A stretch of 64,000 nucleotides of DNA from a virus. The stretch spans positions 19,933 to 83,932 of IMG/VR virus record IMGVR_UViG_3300025913_000027, one strand, 5' to 3'. This document shows, one piece after another, positions 18,580-55,074 of the stretch. The position numbers and the translations under genes were made by a program. The first letter of the stretch is position 1. Each line of letters starts with the position of its first letter. Below the pieces are notes generated by a model. The model saw only the letters and a program-made list of their open reading frames with translations, did no database searches and was not told where the DNA came from.

Positions 18580-18582
18580 ATC

Positions 18583-20134: not shown

Positions 20135-20238
20135 GCGCGACCGCGTATATCCCTGAGATATTCGCTGTCGCGTATTTTTGTGGCGCGCATGGGCGCGCTC
20201 CTTCGACATGATGTCGATGCGCGATGGAGGATACCCGC

Positions 20239-21048: not shown

Positions 21049-22631
21049 TGGGATTTCCGTGCGTAGCAGAGTTTCGACGAGAAGGCGCGGAGTACGTCCC
21101 GTATGTGCTGGACGACAACAATGTCCTGCGCGCGGTCGCGTGGGCTCCGCAGCCGGGATCACAAGAGCTATTCTTGATGGACCCCACGGTCGAGGTTCTC
21201 TACGAAGGAACGCGCGGCCCCGGCAAAACCGACGCGCTCATCATGGATTTCTGTCAGGAAGTCGGCAAGGGATGGGGCGCGGAGTGGAAGGGCATTCTCT
21301 TCCGACAGACCCATCCGCAGTTGCGCGACATCATTGAAAAATCCAAGAAGTGGATCAAGCGTATCTGGCCGGACGCGGTCTACAACGAAGTGAAGACGAT
21401 GTGGGAGTGGCCCACGGGCGAGCGCCTTTACTTCGCGCACTTCAACACGCCGAGCCAATACAGCGACTATCACGGCCACGCCTATCCATGGATCGGCTGG
21501 GAAGAATTGACGACGTGGGCGAACCCGGACTGCTACAAGGTCATGTTCTCGTGCTCGCGCTCGACCATCAAGGGCATGCCTCGTAAGGTACGCTCGACAA
21601 CGAACCCTTACGGCGTCGGCCACAACTGGGTCAAGTCCCGCTGGCGGCTGCCGATCAGCGGGATGATCAATGGCAAGCGCATCACGGTCGGGCCGCTCAT
21701 CACGGACAGCGTTGACCAAGATGGCAATCCCGAACCGCCGCGTCGCGCCATCCACGGCTACCTCGACGAGAACGTTCTGCTGCTGCACGCTGACCCCGGA
21801 TACAAGGGGCGCATCAAGGCCGCCGCACGAAACGCATCCGAACTCGCGGCGTGGATGGAGGGCTCGTGGGACATCGTCGCGGGCGGCATGTTCGACGACA
21901 TTTGGTATGAGTACCGCGATACGATTGTGATGGAGCCATTCGACATCCCACCGGGCTGGAAAATCTATCGGGCCTACGACCACGGATCGTCGAAGCCATT
22001 CTCGGTCGGCTGGTACGCGGTTAGCGATGGGACAGACTTCAAGCTGCGCGACGGGCGCACGCGCTCGACCGTGCGAGGCGACAAGTTCCGCTTCAAGGAG
22101 TGGTATGGTTGGCGCGGTCAGCCGAACGAAGGTTCGCGCATGCTCGTCGCCGACATCGCGAAGGGCATCATTGAGCGCGAGATCAAATGGGGTCTCCGCG
22201 CTGCCGACGCGTCGTGGACCCGCGTCAGCCGAGGACCGGCCGACAGTTCGATCTTCGACGACAACACGAACGGCTCCGATGTTTCGATTGCGACCGACTT
22301 CGAGAAGCCAGTCACGATCAACGGCGTCAAGCACCGGGGCATCTTCTGGGAGAAAGCCGACAAGGGGCCGGGCTCTCGCGAGCAAGGCTGGGAGCAAATC
22401 CGAAAGCACCTCAAGGCAACCAAGCGCCCGCCGGGCGGCTTCCGGGAAATCCCCGGGCTCTTCATCACGACCGAATGCCAACATTGGCTTCGGTGCGTTC
22501 CCGTGCTCCCGCGCGACGAGACTAAGATCGACGACGTTGACGACGACAGCGAAGACCATAACGGTGACGAGACGAGATATTTCCTGCGCTTCGAAGCGCC
22601 GACCATGCGGTCCGGGCGTGTAGGGGCTTGA
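21048..22631 (+). CDS. terL: Terminase large subunit
   Basis: PQPGSQ, Walker A GTRGPGKT, Walker B IGWEEL, STTNP coupling motif, nuclease YDHGSSKPF and EDHNGDETRY. Confidence 0.95.
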   Translation: MGFPCVAEFRREGAEYVPYVLDDNNVLRAVAWAPQPGSQELFLMDPTVEVLYEGTRGPGKTDALIMDFCQEVGKGWGAEWKGILFRQTHPQLRDIIEKSKKWIKRIWPDAVYNEVKTMWEWPTGERLYFAHFNTPSQYSDYHGHAYPWIGWEELTTWANPDCYKVMFSCSRSTIKGMPRKVRSTTNPYGVGHNWVKSRWRLPISGMINGKRITVGPLITDSVDQDGNPEPPRRAIHGYLDENVLLLHADPGYKGRIKAAARNASELAAWMEGSWDIVAGGMFDDIWYEYRDTIVMEPFDIPPGWKIYRAYDHGSSKPFSVGWYAVSDGTDFKLRDGRTRSTVRGDKFRFKEWYGWRGQPNEGSRMLVADIAKGIIEREIKWGLRAADASWTRVSRGPADSSIFDDNTNGSDVSIATDFEKPVTINGVKHRGIFWEKADKGPGSREQGWEQIRKHLKATKRPPGGFREIPGLFITTECQHWLRCVPVLPRDETKIDDVDDDSEDHNGDETRYFLRFEAPTMRSGRVGA

Positions 22632-23056: not shown

Positions 23057-24763
23057 ATGGCACTCCCAGATAAACACCCCGAGTATGTTGAGCGCTTGGG
23101 AGAGTGGATACAGATGGCCGATACCTATGCGGGCGAGCGCGCTGTTAAGTCGAAGCGGCTCGACTACCTCCCCGCGACCGAGGGCATGGTGCAGGACGGG
23201 ATGACCACGCCGAACTCGCCGGGCTGGAAGGACTATGAGGCGTATCTGCTGCGCGCGTATTTCCATGACGTTGTCAAAGATGCCGTCAAGGCCATGGTCG
23301 GGATCATGCACAACAAGCCCGCCGTCATCAAGCTGCCCAAGCGGCTTGAGGGCATGATGGAGAAGGCGACGATCCAAGGCGAGGGGCTCCAGATGTTGCT
23401 CCGCCGGATCAATGTAGCGCAGCTCGTTTACGGCCGATGCGGACTGCTCGCCGATGCACCGCAAGGCGTGGATGTGGATAAGGCAACTCCCTACCTCTCG
23501 TTCTACGACCCTTTGCGGATCATCAACTGGGACGCGGGCAAGCTCAACGAGGGCCGGAACGAACTCGACCTCGTCGTGCTCGACGAAAGCGGGTATCGGC
23601 GCGAAGGCTTCACATGGAAGACCGAACGCAAATACCGTGTCCTGACACGTGGCGGAGAGCCGGAGCTGGAAAGCGGCTGGGAGCGTCCGCCTGCTGGAGC
23701 GCCCTACGGCGTCGCCATCAAAGTCAACGACACGAGTATGCCGATCCTTGAGGACTTCATCTATCCGAGTATCGGCGGTAAAATGCTTGACAACATCCCG
23801 TTCGTCTTCATCGGGGCGAACGATCTAGTACCCGAACCGGAAGTGTCCCCGCTTCTCGGCCTGTCCAATTTGGCGCTCGCGATCTATCGCGCCGAGGCGG
23901 ACTACCGACAGACCCTCTACTTGCAGGGCCAGAATACGCTCGTCGTGATCGGCGGCGCGATTGACGAAGCCGCCCCGACGCAACTGCGCGTCGGCAACAA
24001 AGGCGTCATTGACTTGAAGATCGGCGGCGACGCAAAATACATCGGCGTCTCGGCGGCCGGGCTCGGCGAAATGCGCCAGAGCTTGAAGAATGATCAGGAG
24101 GCGGCAGCCGCGCTGGGGGTTTCATTCTTGGATGTCGGCAATGCTCGCGGCGAAAGCGGCGAGGCGCTTCGCATTCGTGTGGCCGCGCGCACGACCACGA
24201 TCTCTTCGGTTGCCCAGTGCGCCGGAGCTGGACTTGAGCAAGTCCTCAAATACTGCGCGGAGTGGGTCGGTGAAGACCCCGAGGAAGTTTCGGTCGAGCC
24301 CACCACGGACTTTGCCGATCAGACTGTCGCTGGCGCTGCGCTGCTTGCGTTCATGCAGGCGAAGCAACTGGGTCTGCCACTGTCGTTGCGCTCTATGCAC
24401 CGCATGATGAAGCTTAACGACATGACGGAGATGGATTTTGAAGAAGAGAATGAGCAGATCGAAGAGGAAGCCGCGTCGATGCTCGGAACGATGGTTGGCC
24501 CGTTTCAGCAGTCGGTCACAGACGATACATTCTTGGATGAGGATGTCAGCCCTATCGCTGATCCTGCTGCGGGCACGCCCGGCGGAGCTATGCCTCCCGC
24601 ATCTCCGGAGGCCCCCGCCTCAACAGCGCCGCCCAATTCGAATGTTCCGATTAAGCCGAACAGTCAAAGTCCAAAGGGCCATACGCGTGGGTCACCTGTT
24701 CCGTTGAAGCGCAAGGTCGGCAAGAAAGGCGCGTCGGCCGGAAAGACGAAGGGCGGCGCGTGA
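23057..24763 (+). CDS. Portal protein (DUF4055-like)
   Basis: Follows terL; HPEY..., YLP, Y.AYL.RA, PLLGL.NL.LA.YR..ADY, ESGEAL motifs. Confidence 0.9.
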   Translation: MALPDKHPEYVERLGEWIQMADTYAGERAVKSKRLDYLPATEGMVQDGMTTPNSPGWKDYEAYLLRAYFHDVVKDAVKAMVGIMHNKPAVIKLPKRLEGMMEKATIQGEGLQMLLRRINVAQLVYGRCGLLADAPQGVDVDKATPYLSFYDPLRIINWDAGKLNEGRNELDLVVLDESGYRREGFTWKTERKYRVLTRGGEPELESGWERPPAGAPYGVAIKVNDTSMPILEDFIYPSIGGKMLDNIPFVFIGANDLVPEPEVSPLLGLSNLALAIYRAEADYRQTLYLQGQNTLVVIGGAIDEAAPTQLRVGNKGVIDLKIGGDAKYIGVSAAGLGEMRQSLKNDQEAAAALGVSFLDVGNARGESGEALRIRVAARTTTISSVAQCAGAGLEQVLKYCAEWVGEDPEEVSVEPTTDFADQTVAGAALLAFMQAKQLGLPLSLRSMHRMMKLNDMTEMDFEEENEQIEEEAASMLGTMVGPFQQSVTDDTFLDEDVSPIADPAAGTPGGAMPPASPEAPASTAPPNSNVPIKPNSQSPKGHTRGSPVPLKRKVGKKGASAGKTKGGA

Positions 24764-24924: not shown

Positions 24925-25172
24925 GTGATCCGGCTGGGCCGCACATCGTAAAAACCTTTCACGAGGCCATCGATATCCTCGACGCCTGTGAACCGGCGAT
25001 ACGGGACATGATCGAGACGCACTTGATGGATGTTGCCGGGATTAACAAGACACGGGTCAGCGATGCCATGCTGTCCCGTGACGAGCTGACGAAGCGCATC
25101 GTTGCGCTTCGTCATCACCACATCAAGGCGGCATTCCGCCATCTGAGAGAGCATCTACCCAGTGACATATAA
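24921..25172 (+). CDS. Hypothetical protein
   Basis: GTGA overlap, 83 aa. Confidence 0.6.
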   Translation: MSDPAGPHIVKTFHEAIDILDACEPAIRDMIETHLMDVAGINKTRVSDAMLSRDELTKRIVALRHHHIKAAFRHLREHLPSDI

Positions 25173-26151
25173 CCCCGCCCAACCCCGCAACAATCATGGC
25201 GAGTTCGGCACGACCGACGTAGCCTTGAAGGGGCCGCAACAAACTGGAGGCGCGAGTGCAGTCGTTACCGAACGGCCGATCAATGTTGCTGCTCACAAGG
25301 GGGCGACCACTCCCGAAGAGGCGCAGGCGCAAGCGGTCCTTGTCGCGGCTGGAGCAAAACCTCTTGATGGGTTACCTCAGAAGCCTATCGCGCTTGAAGG
25401 ACAGTGGTATGTTCCGGGACCAATCGGGCGGCTCCGCGACGCGGCCAGTGAGTATATGAGATCGGCCGGGCTGCCCTACAGCCCGCCAACCGAATACGCG
25501 AAGCTCGATAAGGAGCGGGCTGCACGGATCGCGACTGAGTACGACAACGAGAAAAACGACCCGACCGATCCGAAGGTGAAGGCGAGCTACGAGGCGATGG
25601 CCAAGGAAACTCTCGCGCAGTGGGAAGTGATCAAGAAGACGGGTCTTCAAGTCGAGTGGGTCAAGCCCGGGCAGAAGGACCCCTACGCCCTGTCGCCGCG
25701 TCTCGCGGCGATGGACGTGAGCGAGAACAACCATTGGTGGGGATTTCCCACGGACCTCGGGTACGGCTCCGGCGTCGGCGCGAGCGACATGAGCAAAGAC
25801 AATCCGCTGCTGCGACCGACCGGCGAAGTGATCGACGGGCGCAAGGTTGTCGTCAACGATGTCTTTCGCATCGTGCATGACATGATGGGCCATTTGAAGG
25901 AAGGCAATGGTTTCAGAGCCGAGGGCGAGGAAAACGCTTGGCGCTCCCATGCCGCGATGTATTCGGACCTCGCGCGTCCGGCGATGACGAACGAAACGCG
26001 CGGACAAAATTCGTGGGTCAACTATGGCCCGCATGGTGTGACCAACCGAACGGCTGACGCGGAGCATACGATCTTCGCTCCGCAGAAGATTGGGCTCATG
26101 CCAGACTGGACAGAGAACGAGGGTCGGATCGATGACAAACGCCCTCATTGA
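25162..26151 (+). CDS. Head-region protein with polyvalent-protein-like (zincin-like) domain; possible ejected protein
   Basis: N-terminal NPAQPRNNHGEFG; FRIVHDMMGH...GEENAW..H..MYS...ETRGQNSWVN. Confidence 0.65.
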   Translation: MTYNPAQPRNNHGEFGTTDVALKGPQQTGGASAVVTERPINVAAHKGATTPEEAQAQAVLVAAGAKPLDGLPQKPIALEGQWYVPGPIGRLRDAASEYMRSAGLPYSPPTEYAKLDKERAARIATEYDNEKNDPTDPKVKASYEAMAKETLAQWEVIKKTGLQVEWVKPGQKDPYALSPRLAAMDVSENNHWWGFPTDLGYGSGVGASDMSKDNPLLRPTGEVIDGRKVVVNDVFRIVHDMMGHLKEGNGFRAEGEENAWRSHAAMYSDLARPAMTNETRGQNSWVNYGPHGVTNRTADAEHTIFAPQKIGLMPDWTENEGRIDDKRPH

Positions 26152-26505: not shown

Positions 26506-27366
26506 ATGTTGAAAACAGTCTATGATACCGCCGAGGAAATCCCGGAGGGCTATGCGGACCTCTACAAGGAACGCAACGGCAAGTGGGAGCTGACTGGCAT
26601 CCAAGGCGTGAAAACGCAAGCGGATGTTGATCGCGTGCAAGCTGCGCTCGTGAAGGAGCGCAACGACCACAAAGCGACCAAGGCGCTGCTCGCGCCGTTC
26701 GAGGGCCTCGACCCCGATCAGATCACGGCCAACGCAACCGCGCTTGAAGAGGCCCGTGCTCAGTTGGACGCCATCAACAAGGATGGTCGGCTCGATGAGG
26801 CCAAGCTGGAGCCGATTATTGCGGCTCGCGTCAAGCAGGCTACGGCCCCGCTGGAGCGCGACAAGCAAAATCTGGAGCGCCAGCTCGAAGCGCAAAAGAA
26901 GGCCGTTGCCGAGAAGGACGGCGAGGTCACCTCCTTGAAGACTTCGATCACCACGGGCGAGATCACCCGGCAGATCAGTGACGCGGCGATCAAGGCCAAG
27001 ACACTGCCCTCCGCCGTGCAGGATGCTGTCCGTTATGGTAAGGACATCTTCGAGCGCACCGAAGATGGCCGCACCATCACCAAGGATGTCCCCGGCGTTG
27101 TCCCCGGACTGTCCCCGGATGAATGGTTGAAGGACATGATGGAAAAGGCTCCGCATTGGTGGCCTGCGTCTGTCGGCGGCGGCTCGCAGGGCGGCGGCCC
27201 CAACGGTCGGGGCGGTTACGGCGGAGCCAACAATCCTTGGTCGAAGGAAGGTTGGAACATGACCAAGCAGGGCGCTCTCGTGCGTCAGCTCGGCGAGGCG
27301 AAGGCGGCGGAGATCGCAGCCCAAGTCGGTGCCAAGATCGGCGATACGAAACCCGCCGCTGCCTGA
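26506..27366 (+). CDS. Capsid scaffolding protein
   Basis: LK..YDT.EEIPEGY.DLY.E N-terminus, coiled coil, SVGGGSQGG, C-terminal NNPWSKEGWNMTKQG. Confidence 0.85.
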   Translation: MLKTVYDTAEEIPEGYADLYKERNGKWELTGIQGVKTQADVDRVQAALVKERNDHKATKALLAPFEGLDPDQITANATALEEARAQLDAINKDGRLDEAKLEPIIAARVKQATAPLERDKQNLERQLEAQKKAVAEKDGEVTSLKTSITTGEITRQISDAAIKAKTLPSAVQDAVRYGKDIFERTEDGRTITKDVPGVVPGLSPDEWLKDMMEKAPHWWPASVGGGSQGGGPNGRGGYGGANNPWSKEGWNMTKQGALVRQLGEAKAAEIAAQVGAKIGDTKPAAA

Positions 27367-27801: not shown

Positions 27802-30308
<2,507 letters not shown>

Positions 30309-30365
30309 CGGATCAACATCCGTGTGCTACCGGAGCTATGGTTTAGTTAAGGAGTGTCCCCCGCA

Positions 30366-31490
30366 ATGCGTTTCCATGTTCTCGGCATTCCGCACACGAT
30401 CTCGACCCCGGAGTATTCGAGTTGTGCCTTTACCCAGAAGGTCGTCAAGCTCTGCAAGATGCTGATGATGGAGGGTCACGAAGTCTTTCACTATGGACAC
30501 TCCCAGTCGAAGGTCAGTTGCACAGAGAATGTTGTCTGCACGACGCCGCAGGACTTGAAAATTTCCTACCCGGGCCACGACTGGCGCAAGAGCGGTTTCC
30601 CCGACTACAAATTATCCGATCACTGCTATCAGGTGTTTTACTGTAGCGCGAAGGAAGAGATCGGTCGCCGCAAGCAACCCGGAGACTTCCTTCTCTGTCC
30701 GTTCGGAATGGGACACAAAGCGGTTGCTGACGCGCATCGGGATATGCTCGTGGTGGAGAGCGGCATTGGCTATCCGCACGGCACCTTTGCTCCGTACCGA
30801 GTTTTCGAAAGCTACGCGATCATGCACGCGTATCAGGGCACGGCGGCGGCAATCGACGCGCGCAATGATTTTTGGTATGACGCCGTGATCCCAAACTCTT
30901 TCGATCTCGACGAGTTTGATTTTTCGGATAGCTTCGATCTCCCCGACGATGAAGGCTATTTCCTCTTCCTCGGTCGGCAGAACTCAGGCAAAGGCCTGCA
31001 CATCGCTAAGCAGATTGCGGAAACGACAAAGACCAAGCTCGTCGTCGCTGGCCCCGGCCCGCTGGAGATGCCATCCGAATTTATCCAACCATTGGGCGTC
31101 GTCGGCCCGGCGAGGCGGCGAAAACTTCTGAGCCAAGCCAAGGCGACAATATGCGCCTCGACCTTTCTCGAACCATTTTGCGGAGTGCAGATCGAAAGCA
31201 TGCTCTCGGGCACGCCGGTCATCTCGTCGGACTGGGGCGCGTTTGCGGAGTATAACGTCCACGGCCAGACGGGTTACCGATGCAAGACTTTCGAGCAGTT
31301 CGTTTGGGCTGCAAACAATATCGGAGGGATTAAACGGCGGCAGTGTCGTAACTGGGCCATGAACTTTTCGCTGGAGAAAATCGCTCCGATGTACTCGGAC
31401 TACTTCCGCTCGGTGCAGGATATTTACGGCGGAAAAGGCTGGTATGAGACCCGCACGGATCGGCAAAATCTAAGCACGTCGAGCTTCTGA
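30366..31490 (+). CDS. Glycosyltransferase, GT4/GT-B fold
   Basis: FLFLGR...KGLHIA, EPFCGVQIESMLSGTPVISSDWGAFAE (E-x7-E motif). Confidence 0.9.
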   Translation: MRFHVLGIPHTISTPEYSSCAFTQKVVKLCKMLMMEGHEVFHYGHSQSKVSCTENVVCTTPQDLKISYPGHDWRKSGFPDYKLSDHCYQVFYCSAKEEIGRRKQPGDFLLCPFGMGHKAVADAHRDMLVVESGIGYPHGTFAPYRVFESYAIMHAYQGTAAAIDARNDFWYDAVIPNSFDLDEFDFSDSFDLPDDEGYFLFLGRQNSGKGLHIAKQIAETTKTKLVVAGPGPLEMPSEFIQPLGVVGPARRRKLLSQAKATICASTFLEPFCGVQIESMLSGTPVISSDWGAFAEYNVHGQTGYRCKTFEQFVWAANNIGGIKRRQCRNWAMNFSLEKIAPMYSDYFRSVQDIYGGKGWYETRTDRQNLSTSSF

Positions 31491-31674: not shown

Positions 31675-32772
31675 ATGGTCAATGTGTCCACTCAAATTTC
31701 GGACGTTATCGTTCCCGCTGTCTTCACTCCGTACACTCAGCAGCTCACGATGGAGAAGACCGCGATCATTCAGAGCGGCGTCGCTGCTCGCGATGACTTC
31801 CTCGACAATTTGCTCGCTGGCGGCGGTCTGACCTTCACCGTGCCGTCTTGGCAGGACATCGGCGATCCGGCGGAGAACGTTTCCTCGGATGACCCGAACA
31901 CCTCTTCGACCCCGAACATCACTCAGACCTCCGCCGAAGTCGCGGTGCGCCTCTCGCGTAATGCGAGCTGGAGCACGATGCGTCTGGCGACCGCTCTGGC
32001 CGGTTCCGATCCGATGCAGTCCATCGCATCGCGCGTTTCCGACTACTGGGTCCGCCGGTTGCAGCGCGCGTTCGTCGCAGTTGCCAACGGCATCTTTGCC
32101 AACAACGCTCTGGCCGACCCCACGCTGGGCCGTTCCGGGCAAGTCGGCATCAATGCGGCCTACGGCACTCAGAATGACTTGACCCACGACGTTTCGGGCG
32201 TGTCGTTCTCGGCAGGCGTGACCAACTTCTCAGGCTCGGCGTTTATCGATGCCTGCACGCTGCTCGGCGACGCCGCCGAGGACGTGACCGCCGTGTTCAT
32301 GCACTCCATCGTCTATTCGACGGCGCAGAAGAACAACCTGATCGACTTCGTCCCGGACAGCGAAGGCAAGGTCAACATTCCGACCTTTATGGGCCGTCGC
32401 GTGATCGTTGACGACGGTATGCCCAACCCCGCTGGCGACGCCAGCAACGGCGCGCAGACCGCCGCAGGCATCTATCATACGTGGCTTGTGGGTCCTGCCG
32501 CGTTCCGGCTCGGCGTGGGTACGCCCATCGTGCCGACCGAAGTCTTCCGCAATCCGGACCGTGGTAACGGCGCGGGTAGCGATACTCTCTACAACCGCGT
32601 CGAGTGGTGCATCCATCCGGTCGGCCATGCCTACGTCGGCTCGCCCGCTACCGATGGTGGCCCGACCAACGCCGCGACCGCGAACAACCTCGCGTATTCC
32701 CACTCGTGGGTCCGCGTGTTCCCGGAACGCAAGCAGATCAAGCTTGCCCGCCTGATCACCCGCGAGAGCTAA
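31675..32772 (+). CDS. Major capsid protein
   Basis: TQISDVIVPAVFTPY N-terminus, MHS.VY, IPTFMGRRVIVDD, W.RVFPERKQI; strong codon bias, AGGAG SD, downstream terminator. Confidence 0.9.
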   Translation: MVNVSTQISDVIVPAVFTPYTQQLTMEKTAIIQSGVAARDDFLDNLLAGGGLTFTVPSWQDIGDPAENVSSDDPNTSSTPNITQTSAEVAVRLSRNASWSTMRLATALAGSDPMQSIASRVSDYWVRRLQRAFVAVANGIFANNALADPTLGRSGQVGINAAYGTQNDLTHDVSGVSFSAGVTNFSGSAFIDACTLLGDAAEDVTAVFMHSIVYSTAQKNNLIDFVPDSEGKVNIPTFMGRRVIVDDGMPNPAGDASNGAQTAAGIYHTWLVGPAAFRLGVGTPIVPTEVFRNPDRGNGAGSDTLYNRVEWCIHPVGHAYVGSPATDGGPTNAATANNLAYSHSWVRVFPERKQIKLARLITRES

Positions 32773-36469: not shown

Positions 36470-36543
36470 ATGGTTTCATAGGCCAAAACGGACAGAAAAT
36501 GTCCGTTTCGGCGTATGAAGTATCCCACCGGAGAACTCCCCCC

Positions 36544-36927
36544 ATGACCGACGAAACTCAAGACCCCGCTGCCGCCCCTGTAGTGGCTCAGGATGCGCCC
36601 GCTGCCGACCCGGCCCCGGAAGTCGCCGCCGACCCGGCAGCCGCTCCAGACCCCGTTTCTGAGGCTCCGGCCGCCGACCCGGCCCCGGAAGTCGCTGCCG
36701 ACCCGGCCCCGGAAGTCGCTGCCGACCCGGCCCCGGAAGTCGCTGCCGACCCGGCCCCGGAAGTCGCCGCCGACCCCGCTCCGGCGGCTGATCCCGCTCC
36801 GGCTGCCGACCCCGTAGCGGACGACGAGGACCTCGAAATCGAGATCACCGAAACGATCCGGGTCCACAATCCGAACGCCCTCCGTGGCGTCCCCGCCGGT
36901 CCGCCTCCGCATCCGCGTACCGTATAA
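36544..36927 (+). CDS. Acidic Pro/Ala-rich protein with AADPAPEV tandem repeats
   Basis: GGAG SD, ATG 36544; 24-bp tandem repeats. Confidence 0.65.
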   Translation: MTDETQDPAAAPVVAQDAPAADPAPEVAADPAAAPDPVSEAPAADPAPEVAADPAPEVAADPAPEVAADPAPEVAADPAPAADPAPAADPVADDEDLEIEITETIRVHNPNALRGVPAGPPPHPRTV

Positions 36928-37595: not shown

Positions 37596-38143
37596 TGCCC
37601 CTTCGCATCACAACCGATAAGATCGCGGCCCCGAAGTTCAAACAGAATTTGGCTGGGCTCCGAGACCGGTTCGAGAAGGCCCTGACTGCCTCAGTCAACA
37701 TGGCTGCGTCCATGATCAAAGAACAGGCCGATGCGGATATCGCTGGAGCTGGAAATTTCGGACAACGCTGGACGGAGGGCCTGCATGTAGACGTGAGCGA
37801 CACGCTCGGCAACATGCGGATCAGCGTCACGCATGATATCCCTTATGCCGGGATTTTCGAGACCGGCGGTGTGATCAAGGGAAATCCATTCCTCTGGATA
37901 CCGATCAGCGGGACGGATGCCGAGCGCACTCCCGCAAGCGCGTATAGTGGAGGGCTCTTCTCCGTCAACCGCAAGAGCGGCGGCCCACCGCTGCTCTTCT
38001 CCATTTCGGATAAACAACCGAAGTATTTCGGGGTCGAGAGCGTCACGATCCCGAAGAAATTCCATACCGGCGAAATCGTGAAGAGTGTGATGGGGAATTT
38101 CCGTCAGATATTCGATAGCGCGTTTAGGAGTAGGACCGTCTGA
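37595..38143 (+). CDS. Tail completion/neck protein (HK97 gp10-like)
   Basis: IPYAGIFETGGVIKG..LWIP; TGATG overlap. Confidence 0.55.
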   Translation: MPLRITTDKIAAPKFKQNLAGLRDRFEKALTASVNMAASMIKEQADADIAGAGNFGQRWTEGLHVDVSDTLGNMRISVTHDIPYAGIFETGGVIKGNPFLWIPISGTDAERTPASAYSGGLFSVNRKSGGPPLLFSISDKQPKYFGVESVTIPKKFHTGEIVKSVMGNFRQIFDSAFRSRTV

Positions 38144-40443
38144 TGCCCAATCTTGACGACATCACGCAAAAGATTTTGATCGACGGCGACGCCGAGGTCA
38201 TCAATAAGCTCAGTGAGATCGGAGAGAAAGGCTTCGAGGCGATCAAGGAGCTTAGCGAAGCGGCGGAGAGCGGAGCGAGCGGACTTGAAATCTTCGGGAC
38301 AGCAATCGGCGAAGTAGGCGCGACGATCATCGGGGTCGTCGGCGCGATCTCAGCGTTCGTCGATGCCAATGACGAAGCCATCCAGCGTACCAACTTCCTC
38401 GCGCAGGCGTTCGGGGCCACGACTGAGCAAGTCGTCGGGCTCGAAGCCGCGTTTGCCGCCGCTGGCGTCAGCACGCGTACCTTCGAGCAGTTCGCCCAGC
38501 GGCTCACGACGACTATCGCGCGTGAGTGGCCTGCGATTACCGAGAGTATCCGGACTTCGTCCAACGAACAGGACGCGGCTCAGGAGCGTGTTGTCTCTTC
38601 GACCATCAAAGTGCAGGAGGCCCAGCGGGCACTTGGTTTCGTAAATGACGAGACCGCCAGCAAGATCGCTAACTCGTCCCTTCGGGCACAAGCGGCATAC
38701 ACCGCGCTCCAGTTCGCGGCCTCCCATGCGCTCCAGCAAATCCAGCACGACACGGATAGCGTGCGCGGTGCCGATCTTAGTTTGGAGAGCGCGCAACAGC
38801 GGCTCGCCGAGCTAGAGGGCCGCCCAGTATCGGAAGCGGACAAGCAGGCCCTTCAAATTCGCGAAGCTCAGCTTGCCGTGGACAAAGCCCGGCAGGCGGC
38901 AGCGGATGCTCGCATCGCGCAGCAGGAGCATGCGGCGCAAGCGGCGGCTAAGCAAGCTCAGCTCGAACAGGCGGCGGAGGATGCCGCCCTAAAACACGAG
39001 ACTGCCATTTCCGAGGCTGCGACCTCGCGACAGAAGGCGGAAGAGGCCGTGCGCTCTGCGATCACCGCTCGCGCCGAGGCCGAGGATCGCGCTCAGCAGA
39101 TCGCGCTCAAGAGCATCCCGGCGATCAAGTCGGCAATCGAAGGGCTGACCGACGGTAGCAAGGCGGCCACGACGGCTATCGATCTGACGCAAGTTTCGGT
39201 CACCAATCTGACTAAGGGCATCATTGCTGCCGCTCAGGTCGGCGATAAGCCGCCGACCGGTTTTCAGGTTATGGTCGAGCTGTCCCGTGTTCTTTCCAGC
39301 GAACAGGGCAAGCTCATCGACAGCTCGCAAAAACTCGCTATCGTCCAGCAGCTCAGTCAGCGCGGTTTCAGCACAACGAGTGGAGCGGCCTTTGAGCTGC
39401 TCAACGCGCTGGAGCGCGGGCCGGAGTATTTCAAGAGGTTCGAGAACGCGGCCAAATCCCATTTCTCGGTCAACGAGCAAGGGCGGCAGAACGTCGAACA
39501 CTTTAGAGATGCTATCGCTGCGCTAGGTCAGAGCATCGAACTTGTCAATCGCGACTTCGCGGCTGCCGCGAGCCCAATCTTCACGAGCTTCCTTGAAGCG
39601 CTCAATGAGAGCCTGACCACGAGCGACGGGCTGCTGCATGCGGTCGTAGCGGGCGTTCAAGCTATCGGTGCGGGTCTTGGGGTCGTTATCGAGGGCTATC
39701 AGAAGCTCGCGACTGCGATTGATCATGCGTTCAATCTTGAGCCCGGGAGGGCGATGCAGGCTCTTATTGGGGCGGCTATCACGGCGGTTGCGCTCTTCGC
39801 ATCCGCGTGGCTGGCGGTCCCGGCTGCGATTGCGGTCGTGGTGACAGCTATCGGCTACATCGCGGAAAACTGGGATAAAGTACGAGAAGGGGCAGCTCGC
39901 GCATGGGAGGCGGTCACCAATAGCTCGGTAGTCAAATTCTTGGAGAGCGTCCTCGAAGAGGTGAAGGCTATCTGGAGTTTCCTCTCGAAGATCGTCGCGG
40001 CAGCGAACACCCTATCTCCGATAAGCGGCAAGAGCGGCGGCGCGAGTGCTGGCGCGGGAGGCAGCGAAAGTGGCGCGCAGGGGTTCGCGGAAGGCGGCCC
40101 CATCAACGGCCCGGGAACGACTACGAGCGACAGCATCCTCGCGCGCCTGTCGCGCGGCGAGTTCGTCATCAAGGCAGCGGCGGTGCAGACATATGGCGCT
40201 GGGCTCTTCCATGCGCTGAACAACATGATGCTGCCCGGCTTCGCGTCCGGTGGCCTCGTGCCATCTCCGGTCCGTCTGCCCGGCGGCGGCAGCGTGCCCG
40301 CGACGAGCACATTGAACTTGTCAATCGACGGACGATCCTTTAATGGTTTGCGGGGGCCGAAGAGCACGATTGACGACCTCTCCAGCTTCGCGATTGCCCG
40401 CCAGACTTCGGCGGCGGGTAGCAACCCTTCATGGATGAAGTAA
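38143..40443 (+). CDS. Tail tape measure protein
   Basis: Ala-rich helical, coiled coil, GYIAENWDKV, C-terminal GFAEGGPINGPGTTTSDSILARLSRGEFVI. Confidence 0.9.
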   Translation: MPNLDDITQKILIDGDAEVINKLSEIGEKGFEAIKELSEAAESGASGLEIFGTAIGEVGATIIGVVGAISAFVDANDEAIQRTNFLAQAFGATTEQVVGLEAAFAAAGVSTRTFEQFAQRLTTTIAREWPAITESIRTSSNEQDAAQERVVSSTIKVQEAQRALGFVNDETASKIANSSLRAQAAYTALQFAASHALQQIQHDTDSVRGADLSLESAQQRLAELEGRPVSEADKQALQIREAQLAVDKARQAAADARIAQQEHAAQAAAKQAQLEQAAEDAALKHETAISEAATSRQKAEEAVRSAITARAEAEDRAQQIALKSIPAIKSAIEGLTDGSKAATTAIDLTQVSVTNLTKGIIAAAQVGDKPPTGFQVMVELSRVLSSEQGKLIDSSQKLAIVQQLSQRGFSTTSGAAFELLNALERGPEYFKRFENAAKSHFSVNEQGRQNVEHFRDAIAALGQSIELVNRDFAAAASPIFTSFLEALNESLTTSDGLLHAVVAGVQAIGAGLGVVIEGYQKLATAIDHAFNLEPGRAMQALIGAAITAVALFASAWLAVPAAIAVVVTAIGYIAENWDKVREGAARAWEAVTNSSVVKFLESVLEEVKAIWSFLSKIVAAANTLSPISGKSGGASAGAGGSESGAQGFAEGGPINGPGTTTSDSILARLSRGEFVIKAAAVQTYGAGLFHALNNMMLPGFASGGLVPSPVRLPGGGSVPATSTLNLSIDGRSFNGLRGPKSTIDDLSSFAIARQTSAAGSNPSWMK

Positions 40444-41061
40444 ATGCCCAAAGACGCACTGGGACACGGAAGTAATCCTAGAGGCCTCGCGGGCGAACAC
40501 TTGCCCGTGTGGTATCACGGCTCGCCGACCGGCTTTCCCGGTCTGACTGGCCCTATCCATGTCGGCACTTATCGCGCCGCCCGCATGGCGCTTGAAGCGC
40601 GCATCGGCGTGCCTGCGGATGGGAAAGGCTGGGACGGGACGCGAGAGTATGGAAAGACGCTGCTCGCCGGAAAGGAAACGCTCGCTAAAATGGAGAGTGG
40701 CGAGAAGCCCTACTACAATAAGTATCCGGCGTCCGGATACAATGCAGGTAGTTGCGACGAAGAGGTCCCGCAAAAAGACTACTATCCAGATCAGCGAAAG
40801 AGCTTGCCGACGATGGGGAGGGACCGAACGCCAATGTCATTGACCATGCGCCCGGCTGTCCGGGCCTATCAGATAAATGGCCCGATGAAGAACTCTCCGG
40901 GAACGCCGTACACCGACACGCGAGCCAATGCTCTTGCCCGAGCGCAGCAGACCAAGGGCAACGGCAAGCACGGCTTCTATTACACAAATGATGCCGAAGA
41001 CAGCGGCAGTATCTCGGCTGTCGTGCCGAACCACGAGCACTTAACAGGATTGGTAGAATAG
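40444..41061 (+). CDS. KDxxGHGSN-leader protein 9, ART-like cargo
   Basis: MPKDALGHGSN; WYHGS, IHVGT..AA, GFYYTNDAEDSGSISAVV. Confidence 0.7.
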   Translation: MPKDALGHGSNPRGLAGEHLPVWYHGSPTGFPGLTGPIHVGTYRAARMALEARIGVPADGKGWDGTREYGKTLLAGKETLAKMESGEKPYYNKYPASGYNAGSCDEEVPQKDYYPDQRKSLPTMGRDRTPMSLTMRPAVRAYQINGPMKNSPGTPYTDTRANALARAQQTKGNGKHGFYYTNDAEDSGSISAVVPNHEHLTGLVE

Positions 41062-41062
41062 C

Positions 41063-41533
41063 ATGCCCGGCGGATTTGAAAACATTCTCCCCGCGAATGC
41101 GGATACGATCCTAACGATCTCATCGTTCGGGAACATGCTGTATCAGGCGCGTGGCCTGACGCAAACCCTGTCCGTGATCGGCGAGGCAACTCAGCAGGAC
41201 CGCACGATCAACGGCACTCTCGTCGATCTCTCAGTCGCGCAGTTCCGCAAGTATTCCTCGAAGATCACCTCTCCGAGCGATACGAACGCTCCGCCGCTCG
41301 ACGGCGTCTTCCCCGGTATGATCGTCACCGTACAGTGCGCGGTCGGGCTCTCGTATCTCACGAGCGGCGGGAACGGCCCCAACCATCGCACGCCAGTCTC
41401 CGGCTCTGTCTATACCGAAGGAGCATACACCTTCTATCGACCCGAACTCACGATGATGGTCAAGACCGTCGAAACTCAGTTTGATGAATGGAAGAACGTG
41501 GTAGGCTGGACCTTAGAGCTTGAGGAAGTCTGA
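41063..41533 (+). CDS. Distal tail protein
   Basis: ARGLTQTL, RTINGTLVDLS..QFRKY, GWTLELEEV; follows TMP. Confidence 0.7.
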   Translation: MPGGFENILPANADTILTISSFGNMLYQARGLTQTLSVIGEATQQDRTINGTLVDLSVAQFRKYSSKITSPSDTNAPPLDGVFPGMIVTVQCAVGLSYLTSGGNGPNHRTPVSGSVYTEGAYTFYRPELTMMVKTVETQFDEWKNVVGWTLELEEV

Positions 41534-41913
41534 TGAAAGATGCCAAGGGTCACGGCAGTAACGCGCATAATTCCGGCATCGATAAAATTCCGGGCTGGAG
41601 CCCGGTCAAACTTGTGCCGACGAATAGCCTCCGTCCGCGCCCAGAGAATACCGCGATGATTGAGAAATTCAAAGCGCGAGATGCGGCCAGCGAGAGGGCT
41701 TTTCGCGAAGCATATCCCGGAGAGAAATACGTGCCGTATCCGGGCGACATGCGCTACAAAGTAGACGAGATCAGAAAGACGATCCGGACAGGGGGCTCTC
41801 TTCCGCCGCTCGCGGTCAACAAAGACAACACGATAGAAGACGGCGAAAACCGCTGGAATGCCTATAAGGCCGAAGGCGTAAAGATGATCCCGGTTAGGAT
41901 TAAAACTAGATGA
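41533..41913 (+). CDS. KDxxGHGSN-leader protein 10, ParB/Srx-like cargo
   Basis: MKDAKGHGSNAH; LRPRPEN, LPPLAV...IEDGENRWNAY...IPV. Confidence 0.75.
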   Translation: MKDAKGHGSNAHNSGIDKIPGWSPVKLVPTNSLRPRPENTAMIEKFKARDAASERAFREAYPGEKYVPYPGDMRYKVDEIRKTIRTGGSLPPLAVNKDNTIEDGENRWNAYKAEGVKMIPVRIKTR

Positions 41914-44483
41914 CCCTCCCCTTCACCTTCGCGTGGGTCGATGAGACCCAGACGACCTTCGATCCGAACACGATGAACGTGTTCGACGAGGACATCTTCT
42001 CGTTCGTCATCCAGCACGACGAGGGACAAATCCCGACGCTTGACATCATCGTAAAGAACCCCCGCATCGGGCTGCTCTCGCCCGGGCGCAAAGTCTGGGC
42101 ATGGCTTGGATGGCAGAGCCCGGCGTCCGATCCGAACTATCACGGAGCGCTCGTACCGCTGTTCTTCGGCGTGCTTGTCGGCGTCCCTACGAGCCTCTTC
42201 AAGGAGAAGGTGACGCTCCAGTTCATCGCGCGCTCGCCGCAGTTCATTGCGAACAAACAGGCGCTCGCCGAAACCATGAAGACCTCGCCCTACTACGATC
42301 CGATCTTTATTGAGACGACCAAGCGGGATGACCCGGACACGATCCTCGAAGGATGGTCGGCGCTCTGGCATATCGACCGCACGTCGCTCGCGATCACCGC
42401 GTCCGACATCCTCGTTGGCGAAGACGGCAACGCCGAGTTCGACGAGGATCACGCGTTCTACGATAGCGTCTCGCTGCAATTAGGGCAGCCCCCGCTCGTG
42501 AACATCCGCGTTGAGGCCACTGTCAATTGGACCCAGCGCACGTCGGGCTTCTTCAAGGTGCCAGCAGTCAACATCTCCAGCTATACGGGCGAGACGCTGC
42601 TCAGCGATTGGCCGAAGCCCGGGGCAAGCCTCGGCGGCGGGTACAAGTGCGAGACAAGCTTTGTGACGGATGTCTACTTCATCTCCGAGACGCCAAACAC
42701 GTCTTACAACTATTCGTGGACGAACTCTGACCCCAATCCGGGTCAGTGCTCGACCGCGTCGTCGTCGTATTCGTCGAGCGGCCCTGCCCTGCTTGCGCCC
42801 GATCCGTTGCAAAATGTGTTGACGAGTTACTATCGAGGCGGCGTCTGCTTTCCAGACAGTGATCCGCCGACCAATACCTCCCTCGAAGCGTCTTCTAGCG
42901 GCGTGATCATTCCGCTCTGGAATGTTTCGATGGACATGACAATTCGCTATGACGCGAACCGGCAGTTCTCGGAAGTGCTGTCATTCGACATGCTTGCAAA
43001 CGTGCAGGGCATTCTCGCTTCGCCAACTGTCGATCAAAACACTGAATTGCTCACAGTCTCGTCGGTCGATATCGGGCAACCGCTGATCGAAGTGGACGCG
43101 TGGACTGATTTTGCGGGCAGGCACGTCAGTCTCGCACAGATGATCTTCCCGAACAACCCAACTACGCCGGGAGGTCTATCGTATCAGGTTTGCGTGCAGG
43201 CTGGCACCGCTGGCGTGGTCGAGCCGGTATTCAGCGACATCCCCGGCTTCATCACGAATGATAATGGCGTCGTCTGGGCCAGCCTCGGTACGCAAGGCGT
43301 GTCGCAGGCCTCGGCTTGGGCTCCGGGCGCGTATGTCCCGCTCGGGCAGATCATGCTTCTGCAAAATCAGGTATTCAACACGAGCACCGGCACCTTCGAG
43401 GATGTCCCCGGAGCAACGAGCTATTATCTCTGCACCACGGCGGGCCAGACGAACGGCAAGTACATCGTCAAGACGTACACGCCCCCAGTTACGTCCAATG
43501 TCGAGCCCACTCCAGCAGTCCGCCACATCAACTATATCAAGCAGCCGAACTTCTCGACGGTGGTAGGCGCGTCAATTGCGGACGGCACCGTGATCTGGAC
43601 CGTACTCGGCACGTCTCCCGCGCTTCTGGGTATCCCGATTGGCGGCACCGCGAACGACGTGCGAGCGCGCAGCTACTTCCCGACATCTCGGGGCATTGCC
43701 AGTGTCGAGTATCTTATCAGTCGCGCTCGTGCTCGTCTGCGGTTCCGGGCGCGAGCGGTGAAGATCGGCTGGGAGTGTCGGTTCGCCGACGCGGTCCCGC
43801 TCTCGTGCCGTAAGAACGGCACGCTGTTCGATCCCCGGCTCCCCGGCGGCGCGGCCACTGGCAAGATCACTGCGTACTCGCTCTCATGCAGCGGCGACGG
43901 CAAGCTTCGGGGCAAAGTCGAAATCGGATGTGCCATTGGTTTCGGCGACAGCATTGACGAGATCACGGGAACGCCGGAGTACGCGGCTCCCGGCTACATG
44001 CAAGTCGGATATCAACGCTATGACGGAGCGATGGTGCCACACGGTAGCAATGACACTACGTTTTCATTGCCGGTCTACGGCGGGTTCGATGATGGGCTTC
44101 ACTTCCCCCTCCGCTGGCAAGATGTTAGCGATGGCGGGCTCGTCAGCGGCAGTCTCGCCGATCAGAAGAAGGCGATTGAGGCCTCATTCGCGACCGCGCG
44201 TATCCTCCAGTATTTGAACCAAGCGGGCGGCTCGGTCGGCTCAGCGAATGCGACGGTTCATCAAAACGGCGTCGCGCCGGATGTGGCGTGGCAGATCACG
44301 CGCGAACAGCTCGCGTTGCTCAGTCAGAATACGCCCTACGTGATGGCTGCAAATCCGATCTCATGGTCCTGTCTTTTGAAGCCCTGCGCGGGTAACGGGC
44401 CGTTCGGCGGATCATACGCCATCTCGGTCTCGCCGCTCGTCGTTCCGAAAGGGATCAATCTGGAGGCTCCGTCGTCGCCATGA
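41910..44483 (+). CDS. Tail tip/hub protein
   Basis: 857 aa after Dit; FAWV.., RSYFPTSRG..SVEYLI..ARA.L, GKITAY. Confidence 0.75.
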   Translation: MTLPFTFAWVDETQTTFDPNTMNVFDEDIFSFVIQHDEGQIPTLDIIVKNPRIGLLSPGRKVWAWLGWQSPASDPNYHGALVPLFFGVLVGVPTSLFKEKVTLQFIARSPQFIANKQALAETMKTSPYYDPIFIETTKRDDPDTILEGWSALWHIDRTSLAITASDILVGEDGNAEFDEDHAFYDSVSLQLGQPPLVNIRVEATVNWTQRTSGFFKVPAVNISSYTGETLLSDWPKPGASLGGGYKCETSFVTDVYFISETPNTSYNYSWTNSDPNPGQCSTASSSYSSSGPALLAPDPLQNVLTSYYRGGVCFPDSDPPTNTSLEASSSGVIIPLWNVSMDMTIRYDANRQFSEVLSFDMLANVQGILASPTVDQNTELLTVSSVDIGQPLIEVDAWTDFAGRHVSLAQMIFPNNPTTPGGLSYQVCVQAGTAGVVEPVFSDIPGFITNDNGVVWASLGTQGVSQASAWAPGAYVPLGQIMLLQNQVFNTSTGTFEDVPGATSYYLCTTAGQTNGKYIVKTYTPPVTSNVEPTPAVRHINYIKQPNFSTVVGASIADGTVIWTVLGTSPALLGIPIGGTANDVRARSYFPTSRGIASVEYLISRARARLRFRARAVKIGWECRFADAVPLSCRKNGTLFDPRLPGGAATGKITAYSLSCSGDGKLRGKVEIGCAIGFGDSIDEITGTPEYAAPGYMQVGYQRYDGAMVPHGSNDTTFSLPVYGGFDDGLHFPLRWQDVSDGGLVSGSLADQKKAIEASFATARILQYLNQAGGSVGSANATVHQNGVAPDVAWQITREQLALLSQNTPYVMAANPISWSCLLKPCAGNGPFGGSYAISVSPLVVPKGINLEAPSSP

Positions 44484-50698: not shown

Positions 50699-51294
50699 CA
50701 CTCGGCCCGTCTCCCCCAACTACGCCCGCGCCAATTCGCGACCCAGCGCCAGCCTTCGCGCTGATCACGTCGCCGTCTGGCAACCTCGGGGCAATGGCGG
50801 AGTTCGGATACAATCAGGCCAACATCGCGGTCGGCGGGACCGCTCCCTACACGTATTCGCTCGCGAGTGGTTCGCTTCCGGCGGGCACCGTGCTTAAAAG
50901 CGATGGCACTGTCGAAGGGACTGCGACAACGCCCGGCCCATTCAACTACACGATCAAAGTCACAGACAGCAGCGTACCGCCTAAGAGCGAGACGGCTACC
51001 ATCAGCGGCACCATCACTCCCGTTGTCTCCGGGACTGCATCCTTCTCGGTTGCCGGAGCGACCGGAAGCTACGACCTCCCTCCGTACAACACCTTGAAGA
51101 TTGAAATCTTCGGGACGGCGACCAACCCCACTACGGTCGCACAGATGGGGCAGATACCGGCGGACATCGGGCTATCGGCGGGCGGAGGCGGCCCGCTCTA
51201 TGCGACCGTTACATGGTCAGTCAACATCGTTGGTGCTCCGCTCAACTATTCGATTGGCGCATCTGGCGGTACAATCAAAATTACATGGAGTTGA
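50695..51294 (+). CDS. Ig-like (He_PIG-type) domain virion protein
   Basis: [19 protein letters not shown]...G.V.GT.T..G...YTIKVTDS. Confidence 0.75.
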
Positions 51295-51298
51295 GCAG

Positions 51299-52303
51299 AT
51301 GAAGAGAGCACTGATCACCGGGGTCACCGGACAAGACGGCTCGTATCTCGCCGAGCTTCTGCTCGCCAAGGGGTATGAGGTGCATGGCATCAAACGCCGC
51401 GCATCCAGTTTCAACACTTCGCGCATCGATCACCTTCCAGAACTCAAGCTCCACTATGGAGACATGACGGACGGCATGAACATCGCGCGCTTGATCTTCG
51501 ATATCGAGCCCGATGAGGTCTACAATCTCGCAGCGCAGAGCCACGTGCAAGTCAGCTTCGAAACGCCGGAGTACACGGCCAATGCCGACGCGCTCGGGGC
51601 CATGCGCCTGCTGGAGACACTTCGAACCTACGGCCTCCCAACGCGGGTCTATCAGGCCTCGACCTCAGAGCTATACGGCAACTCGGGCGGCTACTTTCGC
51701 AACGAGGGAACGCCATTCCAGCCCCGCTCCCCATACGCGGCGGCAAAGCTCTATGCCTATTGGCTGACAGTCAACTATCGCGAGGCTTACGGCATCCACG
51801 CCAGCAACGGCATCCTCTTCAATCACGAGAGCCCGCGCCGTGGCCCGACCTTCGTCACACGCAAGATCACCAAGGCGGTTGCGGCGATATCCAAGGGCGA
51901 GCAGGACTGCCTCTACCTCGGCAATATCGACGCGCTCCGCGACTGGGGCCACGCGAAGGACTACGTCGAGGCGATGTATCTGGCCCTCCAGCAAGACAAG
52001 CCCGACGACTACGTCGTGGCGACCGGAGAAGCGCATAGCGTGCGCGAGTTCGTCGAGCTGGCATTCGCCGAAGTCGGTATCGACCTCCGCTGGCGCGGGA
52101 CCGGCGAGAACGAAGTCGGGCTCGACGACAAGACCGGCCGCACGCTTCTGCGGATCGACCCAAAATACTTTCGACCGACCGAAGTAGACCTCTTGCGCGG
52201 CGACGCGACAAAGGCTATGACACGCCTCGGCTGGCGGCCGAAAGTCGGCTTCCGAGCGCTCGTCAAGGAAATGGTTTCAGCAGATTTGAAAGGGAGTGAG
52301 TGA
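51299..52303 (+). CDS. gmd: GDP-mannose 4,6-dehydratase
   Basis: [59 protein letters not shown]. Confidence 0.95.
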
Positions 52304-54129: not shown

Positions 54130-55074
54130 ATGAAACGGAACTCGCCCATTGTGGTGACCGGGGCGGACGGGCTCGCCGGATCAGCCGTAGTCGAGCATCT
54201 CCGCCAAAATCTATTCACGTGTGTCGTACCGATCACGCGTCAGGATGTCGATCTTCGTGATCACAAGGCAGTCTGCGATCTCTTCGCCCGCCTCGGCGAC
54301 AACAACCCGCTCTATGTCTTCCATGCGGCGGCGACCGTCTACGGCCTCGGCGGTAACATGGCCAATCAGGGCAAGAGTATCCTAGATAACACGCTGATCA
54401 ATACCGCCGTGATCGATGCGGCCCAGCGCGTGGGCTGTCGTAAGATCACTGTCATGGGGACGAACGCTGCGTATCCGTGGCCCACTCCCATCCCCTTCAA
54501 AGAAGAGAACCTCTACAACGGTCGCCCGGACGCGGGAGAGTTCGGCTATGGCCACGCTAAGCGGCACATGCTGGCGATGCTCGAAGCCTACCAGCAGAGC
54601 TACGGACTGGAGTATTGCTACCTCGTCAGCGGCAACCTCTATGGCCCCCGCGACAAGTTCAACACAGAGACCGGCCACGTGCTGCCGTCTTTGATCAAGA
54701 AGTTCTCGACGGCGAGAGTAACCAGCGGCGAGGTTGAGATATGGGGAGATGGCTCGGCGACGCGGGACTTCCTCTATAGCAAGGACCTCGCGCGGCTCGT
54801 GCAGATGCTCATGTCGGAAGAACTCAAGCCCGGGCCGATCAATATCGGCAGCGGCGAAACAGTCAGCATCCGCTACCTTGTCGAGACCCTGTGTTCGATC
54901 TCCGGCGTCAGCGCGGATCGTGTCCGCTGGAATGCTTCGAAGCCAAGTGGCCGGGAAACCTGCTATGCGGACCTGTCGCGTATCGGGTCGCTCGGCTTTA
55001 CGCCCCAGTATGACATCCGCACCGGCCTCCGGGAGACGTGGGATTGGTTTGAGGCGAACCGGCGAGCGACTTAA
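54130..55074 (+). CDS. fcl: GDP-L-fucose synthase-family epimerase/reductase (atypical)
   Basis: GADGLAG, HAAA.V.G.GGN, YGHAK (YxxxK), NLYGP.D.F....HVLP.LI.KF, WGDGS.TRDFLY. Confidence 0.75.
   Translation: MKRNSPIVVTGADGLAGSAVVEHLRQNLFTCVVPITRQDVDLRDHKAVCDLFARLGDNNPLYVFHAAATVYGLGGNMANQGKSILDNTLINTAVIDAAQRVGCRKITVMGTNAAYPWPTPIPFKEENLYNGRPDAGEFGYGHAKRHMLAMLEAYQQSYGLEYCYLVSGNLYGPRDKFNTETGHVLPSLIKKFSTARVTSGEVEIWGDGSATRDFLYSKDLARLVQMLMSEELKPGPINIGSGETVSIRYLVETLCSISGVSADRVRWNASKPSGRETCYADLSRIGSLGFTPQYDIRTGLRETWDWFEANRRAT

Follow-up and report, generated by a model that had tools for sequence, protein, structure and literature searches.

In tailed phages, morons are optional genes that stand between conserved late genes, and their definition includes a promoter and a terminator of their own. 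Alt of phage T4 is an injected ADP-ribosyltransferase (ART). The T4 internal proteins are described as diverse defence proteins whose common part is only a capsid targeting sequence (CTS) (PMC3012670, PMC9026906), and the account of polyvalent proteins by Iyer, Burroughs, Anand, de Souza and Aravind (2017; PMC5512222) reports that solo ParB (DdrB-like) and other modules adjoin virion genes. Two genes that may be compared with these systems, leader genes 9 and 10, were analyzed in a window of 64,000 nucleotides, bases 19,933 to 83,932 of the linear, 83,932-base IMG/VR record IMGVR_UViG_3300025913_000027, from an uncultured soil phage (CheckV completeness ~80%); coordinates without a locus name are positions in this window. 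Both genes start with the same short peptide (the leader, or tag) and stand between tail genes, where they are accessory and not tail-tip building blocks. On balance, we lean towards reading them as optional effector cassettes, the shared tag serving to load unbundled polyvalent-type effectors into the virion.

The tape measure gene (38143–40443, + strand, 766 amino acids [aa], stop codon TAA) was recognized by PHROG tape-measure families over residues ~600–740 (best E 6.3e-18). Gene 9 (40444–41061, + strand, 205 aa), which consists of the leader MPKDALGHGSN and a cargo domain, has its ATG at the base right after this stop. It is followed by a 156-aa gene in the position of the distal tail protein (41063–41533, + strand), by gene 10 (41533–41913, + strand, 126 aa), which has the extended leader MKDAKGHGSNAHNSGIDKIPG and a ParB/Srx-like C-terminal half, and by the gene for an 857-aa tail-tip protein in the hub position (41910–44483, + strand). 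Gene 10 overlaps the 156-aa gene at TGATG (41531–41535) and the 857-aa gene at ATGA (41910–41913). An earlier note on this DNA had described the same abutment and overlaps, which were borne out, and had put the two genes about 22 kb from the main cluster of leader genes; the distance from the end of that cluster (18579) to gene 9 was measured as 21.9 kb. Its labels for the conserved genes held for the tape measure, through the PHROG match, while distal tail and hub are names taken from position only. Scans with promoter and terminator consensus sequences gave site counts close to those in shuffles, with no excess, and no terminator-like site was found on the + strand of 40443–41913.

Ten + strand open reading frames (ORFs) of the phage start with M(x)KDAxGHGSN, gene 10 in the form MKDAKGHGSN. 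Over all 83,932 bases of the record, a degenerate leader pattern had 10 matches on the + strand and none on the − strand, and a reversed-pattern control had none, so the recurrence is beyond chance. All ten copies are at ORF starts, each behind a Shine-Dalgarno-like purine run. Third codon positions within the leader vary freely, with the Ser codons TCA, AGC and AGT all in use, and selection has thus been on the peptide, not on the DNA; this synonymous variation, together with the internal protein copies of the leader described below, rules out an RNA-level signal. After removal of the first 22 residues, the ten proteins had no pairwise similarity except a 12-residue motif common to two of them, and whole-gene paralogy of the ten is ruled out by these unrelated sequences.

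The other eight leader genes, with the same start peptide as genes 9 and 10, form the main cluster (15421–18579, + strand), just ahead of the terminase genes, which share its strand. They are at 15421–15675, 15672–16016, 16109–16348, 16522–16968, 17122–17358, 17355–17684, 17681–18133 and 18130–18579 (all + strand). The seventh (17681–18133) matched ART-PolyVal with E 8.7e-14 and 52.9 bits, against a Pfam cutoff of 31.2. The eighth (18130–18579) matched positions 297–398 of phrog_3170, a family common to its cargo and to the post-portal protein P0001 described below.

Relatives of the tail block were gathered by way of two proteins: the 857-aa protein led to four loci (62–79% identity to the homologues) and the 156-aa protein to 18 (59–89% identity). 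Near-identical sets are present among the 18 (L139/L140, L146/L147 and L149–151), so the counts represent fewer independent cases than they suggest. A homologue of the 156-aa protein was found in 18/18 loci, its position behind the tape measure was kept in 18/18, and so was the C-terminal end of the tape measure. With a site called empty when fewer than 70 bases separate the two genes, the junction of the tape-measure and 156-aa genes (the first junction) holds a gene-9 homologue in four of the 18 loci (L139, L140, L143 and L153) and is empty in the other 14. In L009, L011 and L012, the tape-measure, 153–156-aa and large tip genes are directly consecutive. A single 567-base contig (depth 6.5) from the rhizosphere metagenome run X5 joins 40443 to 41063, which is the exact boundary of gene 9, differs by 9 letters over the 498 bases of 41063–41560 and continues into the gene 10 leader; it is a natural variant without gene 9. 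L136, the nearest relative of the window by the 156-aa protein (87% identity, branch support 93/84), has no gene 9 either. Gains and losses are not countable because the tree of this protein is mostly unresolved, 9 of its 12 inner branches being open.

The junction of the 156-aa and 857-aa genes (the second junction) was judged in 16 loci, since L136 and L153 end short of it. It is empty in five (L137, L146, L147, L148 and L152) and holds a different leader gene in four. These inserts are a leader gene with a 127-aa cargo followed by a 78-aa untagged gene (L138), a leader with ART-PolyVal at 34.1 bits (L142; cutoff 31.2), a leader-bearing ART-PolyVal gene at 39.2 bits (L095:2564–2998) followed by a 76-aa untagged gene (L143), and a 33-aa ORF that is hardly more than a leader, abuts the stop of the 156-aa gene and overlaps the start of the 857-aa gene (L144). 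The remaining seven have untagged genes only: an HNH-type endonuclease (L139/L140), an HNH-related 132-aa gene (L149–151), a signal-peptide protein (L141) and a 71-aa gene (L145). The ParB-like cargo of gene 10 was found at this junction in the window only (0/16 related loci). Over its full 152 residues, the L142 insert shares 68% identity with the main-cluster gene at 17681–18133, and the same leader+ART unit is therefore present in different operons of related phages.

The earlier note proposed that leader+cargo units move as cassettes into late-expressed operons, as they might if they had to be expressed at assembly; the movement can be judged from this census. Empty sites were present in relatives at both junctions (14/18 and 5/16), different cargo occupied the same junction (other leader genes in 4/16, untagged genes in 7/16), and the two genes were not fixed structural parts of all relatives, with gene 9 in 4/18 and the cargo of gene 10 in 0/16. 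The cassette idea is thus supported by unoccupied sites, by the exchange of cargo, by the ART unit found in another operon and by the X5 contig; apart from the ATGA coupling motif, which occurs at both ends of a cassette, nothing shows how movement would take place, and the second junction is a general hot spot, which holds only untagged genes in 7/16 loci.

Two further observations were made at the second junction. In L140, the HNH-type gene (3968–4429) and the 857-aa gene (4426 onwards) have ~20 identical initial bases (MTLPLT...), a duplication of the 5′ end of the target as left by insertion or homing; the L139 gene begins with this repeat as well. The untagged 71–78-aa gene (..SFRCVI..GLTR.QAIDY[IV]TG[AV]IA..) lies before the 857-aa gene in L138 (4351–4587), L143 (4387–4617) and L145 (3957–4172), and occurs with or without a leader gene ahead of it.

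The exact leader pattern was found in 112 IMG/VR stretches, a few of the matches being chance ones inside tail-fibre repeats. Extraction from these stretches and the relatives, requiring the motif within three codons of the start codon, gave 156 distinct N-terminally tagged proteins of 33–205 aa (median 128), of which 155 have 20 aa or more of cargo behind the tag; these cargos fell into 45 groups. A C-terminal-part motif, approximately (S/A)xxVP[VI]H[PD][AS]M, is present in the main-cluster genes at 15421–15675, 16109–16348 and 16522–16968 and also in L191 and L028, and marks the biggest cargo group (45/155). The tag itself comprises 13–25 residues, M-KDA-x-GHGS-N/D, often followed by xRG or xxHxxG[IV]xx[IL]G. 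K, D, G, H, G and S are invariant in 120/120 aligned leaders, which had been selected by this motif; past the selected core the consensus is [AG][RH]G[GA], and many proteins further have HxxG[IV]xx[IL]G. The leader was counted in individual records, always on one strand and with 0 in controls: 6 copies in G003, 11 in G007, 8 in G013, 9 in G008, 5 in G009, 4 in G004, 1 in G002 and 0 in G001, a 20.8-kb fragment.

Searched against 1.84 billion proteins, a profile of the 120 leaders detected 424 cluster representatives at E ≤ 1e-3. Among the 148 matches listed, the motif was at residues 1–4 in 133 and internal in 15, and 13 proteins, up to 1590 aa, had 2–4 copies, mostly preceded by ..K[AE] or ..A; the internal copies are spaced ~100–400 residues apart, with a conserved small residue right before the Lys. 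The complete 197-kb jumbo phage G005 has eight tag copies, which lie within longer proteins or well downstream of their first residue; the motif was located within proteins of 237, 369 and 1082 aa, where it is preceded by ..K[AE]. Because the motif lies inside G005 proteins and giant ORFs, the leader is, as judged from the placing of its copies, not only a start peptide but also a mark of module boundaries within giant proteins. In the 166-kb record G006 and its relatives (L032, L051 and L113), a ~405-aa protein has KDALGHGSN 11–12 residues behind its start and a KYDG stretch, which we take to resemble a ligase motif. A Pfam family was assigned to only 5/139 related proteins (three ART-PolyVal, one weak GNAT and one Arr-ms).

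The cargo of gene 9 belongs to a widespread, uncatalogued family with 263 homologues at E ≤ 1e-3. Of the 120 homologues listed, 53 have this leader and 67 do not. The protein matched no Pfam family and none of 50,697 cultured-phage records. Its AF2 model had pLDDT 88.3 and pTM 0.83, with values below 50 for residues 1–17 (40444–40494, + strand), so that the leader peptide is predicted to be disordered or flexible. Foldseek returned nothing at E ≤ 0.001 for the model. A structural search against representatives with VIA-align gave a best Z of 4.8 and none of Z ≥ 5, a size that by the tool's own warning can reflect a mere common arrangement; ART-fold proteins were prominent in the list, which included RES, ParT, MbcT and NatT toxins, diphtheria-toxin relatives, PARPs, Arr and the cyanophage A4 ejection protein. 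Comparison by hhalign with the ART-PolyVal-type leader proteins gave E 0.097, with YHG[ST] as the only aligned stretch. An ADP-ribosyltransferase-like fold for gene 9 is thus a weak lead, not a result, because Z is at most 4.8, Foldseek gave no match and the profile E is 0.097.

For gene 10, Pfam ParB_N (PF02195) was matched with E 2.7e-4 and 21.4 bits, below the gathering cutoff of 26.3. A profile of its family (27 members) matched solved ParB proteins (7bnk_A, E 4.2e-5) over residues 72–122, and ParB_N was matched at E ≤ 0.01 in 10 of the 27 members. The C-terminal half is accordingly described as ParB/Srx-like, membership of the ParB/Srx family being unproven. The leader is present on 27/29 homologues of gene 10, and the other two are 84–85-aa forms that begin at an internal Met.

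The same cargos are found with other tags and in giant proteins. For the gene-9 cargo, 34 viral loci were found and 29 analyzed, four having been dropped for want of a start or motif and one as a 38-residue match. With a shared start peptide defined as at least 6/10 residues common with neighboring ORFs, the gene-9 cargo has another neighbor-shared start peptide in 11/29 loci, nine of them clear tag swaps (L156, L157, L159, L160, L169, L175–177 and L178) and two doubtful (L167 and L172). The other tags include MKL[ST]KILE (L156/157/160), MIKLKDLI (L178), MKRLKEII (L169) and MD[TP]LDLAK (L175–177); genes around the MKL[ST]KILE cluster in L156 have no head-gene annotation, so that a T4-type targeting role for these other peptides is an impression. 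In 7/29 loci, the gene-9 domain lies 380–1728 codons into open frames. Fused as the C-terminal portion of a larger protein, the cargo of the main-cluster gene at 18130–18579 occurs in 207 phage records, among them that of Mycobacterium phage Alice, where the protein is gp99 (433 aa); the Alice gp99 gene is flanked by annotated head-fibre and head-decoration genes. Tag swapping, embedding in giant ORFs and the gp99 fusion, all seen at the level of sequence, together point to the virion.

The late region was annotated by PHROGs and Pfam scans over 29 late ORFs. The small and large terminase genes (20224–22631, + strand) are followed by an HNH gene, which lies between them and the portal gene (23057–24763), by the gene for the 329-aa post-portal protein P0001 (25162–26151, + strand), which matches positions 198–267 of phrog_3170, and by those for the scaffolding protein (26506–27366) and the major head protein (31675–32772); connector and major tail genes lie between the last of these and the tape measure. 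For the 156-aa protein, no family match was obtained in Pfam, PHROGs or PDB sequence profiles, the AF2 fold was poor (pLDDT 49.6), and Atlas gave a lead to DUF2460 with a score of 0.87 only; Pfam, PHROG and PDB sequence searches with the 857-aa protein were without match. DNA from the tape measure to the hub had a 90-base tape-measure motif as its sole match to cultured phage records.

Virion proteins were considered as partners of the leader. P0001, to which neither Atlas nor the PDB gave an identity, has a homologue in G005, G007 and G009 but not in G008, with its nine tag copies, or in G006, and was rejected. Portal, capsid and scaffold were rejected as universal partners, since G005 has no detectable homologue of them, a result at the level of sequence only that is compatible with a shared fold. 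G006 has no homologue of the portal, capsid, scaffold or post-portal protein of the window. Large post-portal proteins have a second start motif, [YF][DN]P..[EQ].R[DN]..G.[WF] (for example VTYNPAQPRNNHGEFG, MTFDPNEERDPHGRWT and MAYDPNEQRDPKGQWS), found in the window at 25162–26151 and in L191 (G008) at 10681–13095 and 13526–14551; in L189 (G005), the minus-strand ORFs at positions 9638–11941 and 16387–18633 of G005 have it in the form EHPRVPAG..GGGEFT. The second motif and the leader may be related, because [KR]-D-x-x-G resembles KDAxG.

Other genes of the late region were noted in passing. The interval between the scaffold and major head genes (28035–31490) encodes a 757-aa collagen-repeat protein (Pfam Collagen E 2.8e-59) and a group-1 glycosyltransferase, which together may provide a glycosylated head fibre or decoration. 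Tandem DPAPEVAA-type repeats make up most of a 142-aa ORF (36499–36927) that is flanked by the major tail gene and the tape-measure chaperone region. A GDP-mannose 4,6-dehydratase (Pfam E 1.8e-144) and an NAD-dependent epimerase are encoded at 51101–52303 and 54130–55074, in the late region downstream of the tail-fibre genes and upstream of the endolysin.

In the loading scheme that we favor, the tag would be an address and/or a processing signal and a functional analogue of the T4 CTS, late-made tagged proteins would be taken into the assembling particle, and the loaded enzymes would enter the next host cell together with the genome. The ten tagged genes would then be a separately encoded counterpart of the giant polyvalent proteins delivered with phage DNA. 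The two copies in the tail operon sit at hot-spot junctions for optional genes, where translational coupling to structural genes would give late co-expression without a promoter of their own; the context is late, in that genes 9 and 10 overlap or abut structural genes and the main cluster is just upstream of terminase. Among 14 runs listed, no RNA run contained the stretch. Several points weigh against loading. Virion loading itself, injection, any cleavage and a receptor are all things that we infer. No partner co-occurs with the tag in all leader-bearing phages, and no prohead protease was recognized among the 29 late ORFs (PHROGs, Pfam), so that a T4-style course of loading followed by cutting would here be without an identified enzyme. 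The ART-like fold of gene 9 is weak and the gene 10 match is under the ParB_N cutoff; with a Pfam family in only 5/139 scanned proteins, most cargos are not demonstrably enzymes. The second junction also takes untagged genes, and position therefore says little about the function of the tag: use of the junction reflects a permissive site with ready-made late expression and nothing specific to the tag. A bolder, joint reading, which we think rather improbable as a whole, is that KDAxGHGS is an undescribed code, in wide use among soil phages, for loading virions with no prohead protease involved. The KDAxGHGS peptide, once free at the N-terminus through the translation start or through a cut of a polyprotein just before the Lys, would dock any small protein at a conserved site of the assembling particle, and effectors would be shuffled as plug-in cassettes between a terminase-side main depot and tail-operon hot spots.

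The main rival is a pure processing signal: the peptide would be chiefly a processing site or module delimiter, at which a protease of phage or host would free modules from polyproteins, and, on stand-alone genes, a vestige of polyproteins with no addressing role. It accommodates the 13/148 listed proteins with 2–4 internal copies, ~100–400 residues apart and with a small residue before the Lys, and the placing of the G005 copies, all of them away from the start of the protein. However, a vestige would not stay invariant (120/120, motif-selected) over ~45 cargo groups while synonymous sites change freely, 133/148 copies are at residues 1–4 where there is nothing to release, and no protease was recognized in the late region; moreover, the two roles are compatible, the T4 tag being described as both addressing and cut (PMC9026906). 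We regard processing alone as unlikely. Somewhat less likely still is that the tagged proteins work inside the cell that makes them and stay out of the particle, with the tag as a shared regulatory handle, for instance a degron, a site for a chaperone or a modification, or a context for translation initiation. That many cargos are short, of low complexity and without known fold or family would fit such a role, as would the failure to identify a virion partner, but members of the same cargo families occur as fused parts of giant proteins and of a protein whose gene is among head genes, the leader genes themselves lie in structural operons or abut them, and modules of the ART-PolyVal and ParB types are described as capsid-delivered early effectors (PMC5512222); a role limited to translation initiation is ruled out by the internal leader copies.

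Two further explanations concern genes 9 and 10 themselves. Their position might reflect their destination, with loading into the tail (the tape-measure lumen or the tip), and the leader-bearing gene-9 homologues with visible context are indeed all directly behind the tape-measure stop (the window, L139/L140 with L094 being the L139 contig, L143 being the L095 contig, and L153). This fixed position is explicable by inheritance within a sub-lineage, genes 9 and 10 do not differ in tag type from the main cluster, which adjoins the head genes, and the ART cassette occupies one place or the other depending on the phage; these points together make tail loading very unlikely. That the two genes are fixed structural parts of the tail tip is hardly credible: the tight translational coupling with structural genes would be expected of such parts, but gene 9 is absent from 14/18 loci and the gene 10 cargo from 16/16, L009, L011 and L012 have directly consecutive genes, and the X5 contig is without gene 9.

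Effector gain, loss and exchange are seen directly in the junction census. If the tag is a loading signal, it would be a second, sequence-unrelated counterpart of the T4 CTS, in long-tailed phages with scaffold-type heads; several hundred protein clusters of unknown function would become candidate injected effectors, with anti-defence proteins expected among them, and the peptide would provide an easy means of packaging foreign proteins in such phages. No description of the leader peptide was found in the literature on polyvalent, capsid-targeting, internal or ejection proteins; the word leader is absent from the main text of PMC5512222, whose supplementary alignments might show the motif.

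Compared with the T4 CTS (IPI–III and Alt), the arrangement is alike in that one short N-terminal peptide is carried by otherwise unrelated proteins, here ten ORFs, and the ART-PolyVal cargo recalls the activity of T4 Alt. It differs in that the peptide is unrelated and belongs to a siphovirus-type phage whose head module has a scaffolding protein and in which no prohead protease was recognized, in that the tag recurs inside giant proteins, and in that some copies are encoded in the tail operon; targeting and cleavage are putative features of the present tag. The precise presence or absence of the cassettes between conserved neighbors in close relatives, and the varied content at one junction, are as in morons; unlike morons, the cassettes have no promoter or terminator of their own and are translationally coupled at both ends. 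The polyvalent proteins are approached through ART-PolyVal (above cutoff), the weakly ParB-like gene 10 and the presence of the gene-9 domain in very long ORFs elsewhere, and the leader genes adjoin virion genes as the solo modules are reported to do (PMC5512222). A difference is that the modules are unbundled here, as 5–11 small genes in a genome that all begin with one peptide.

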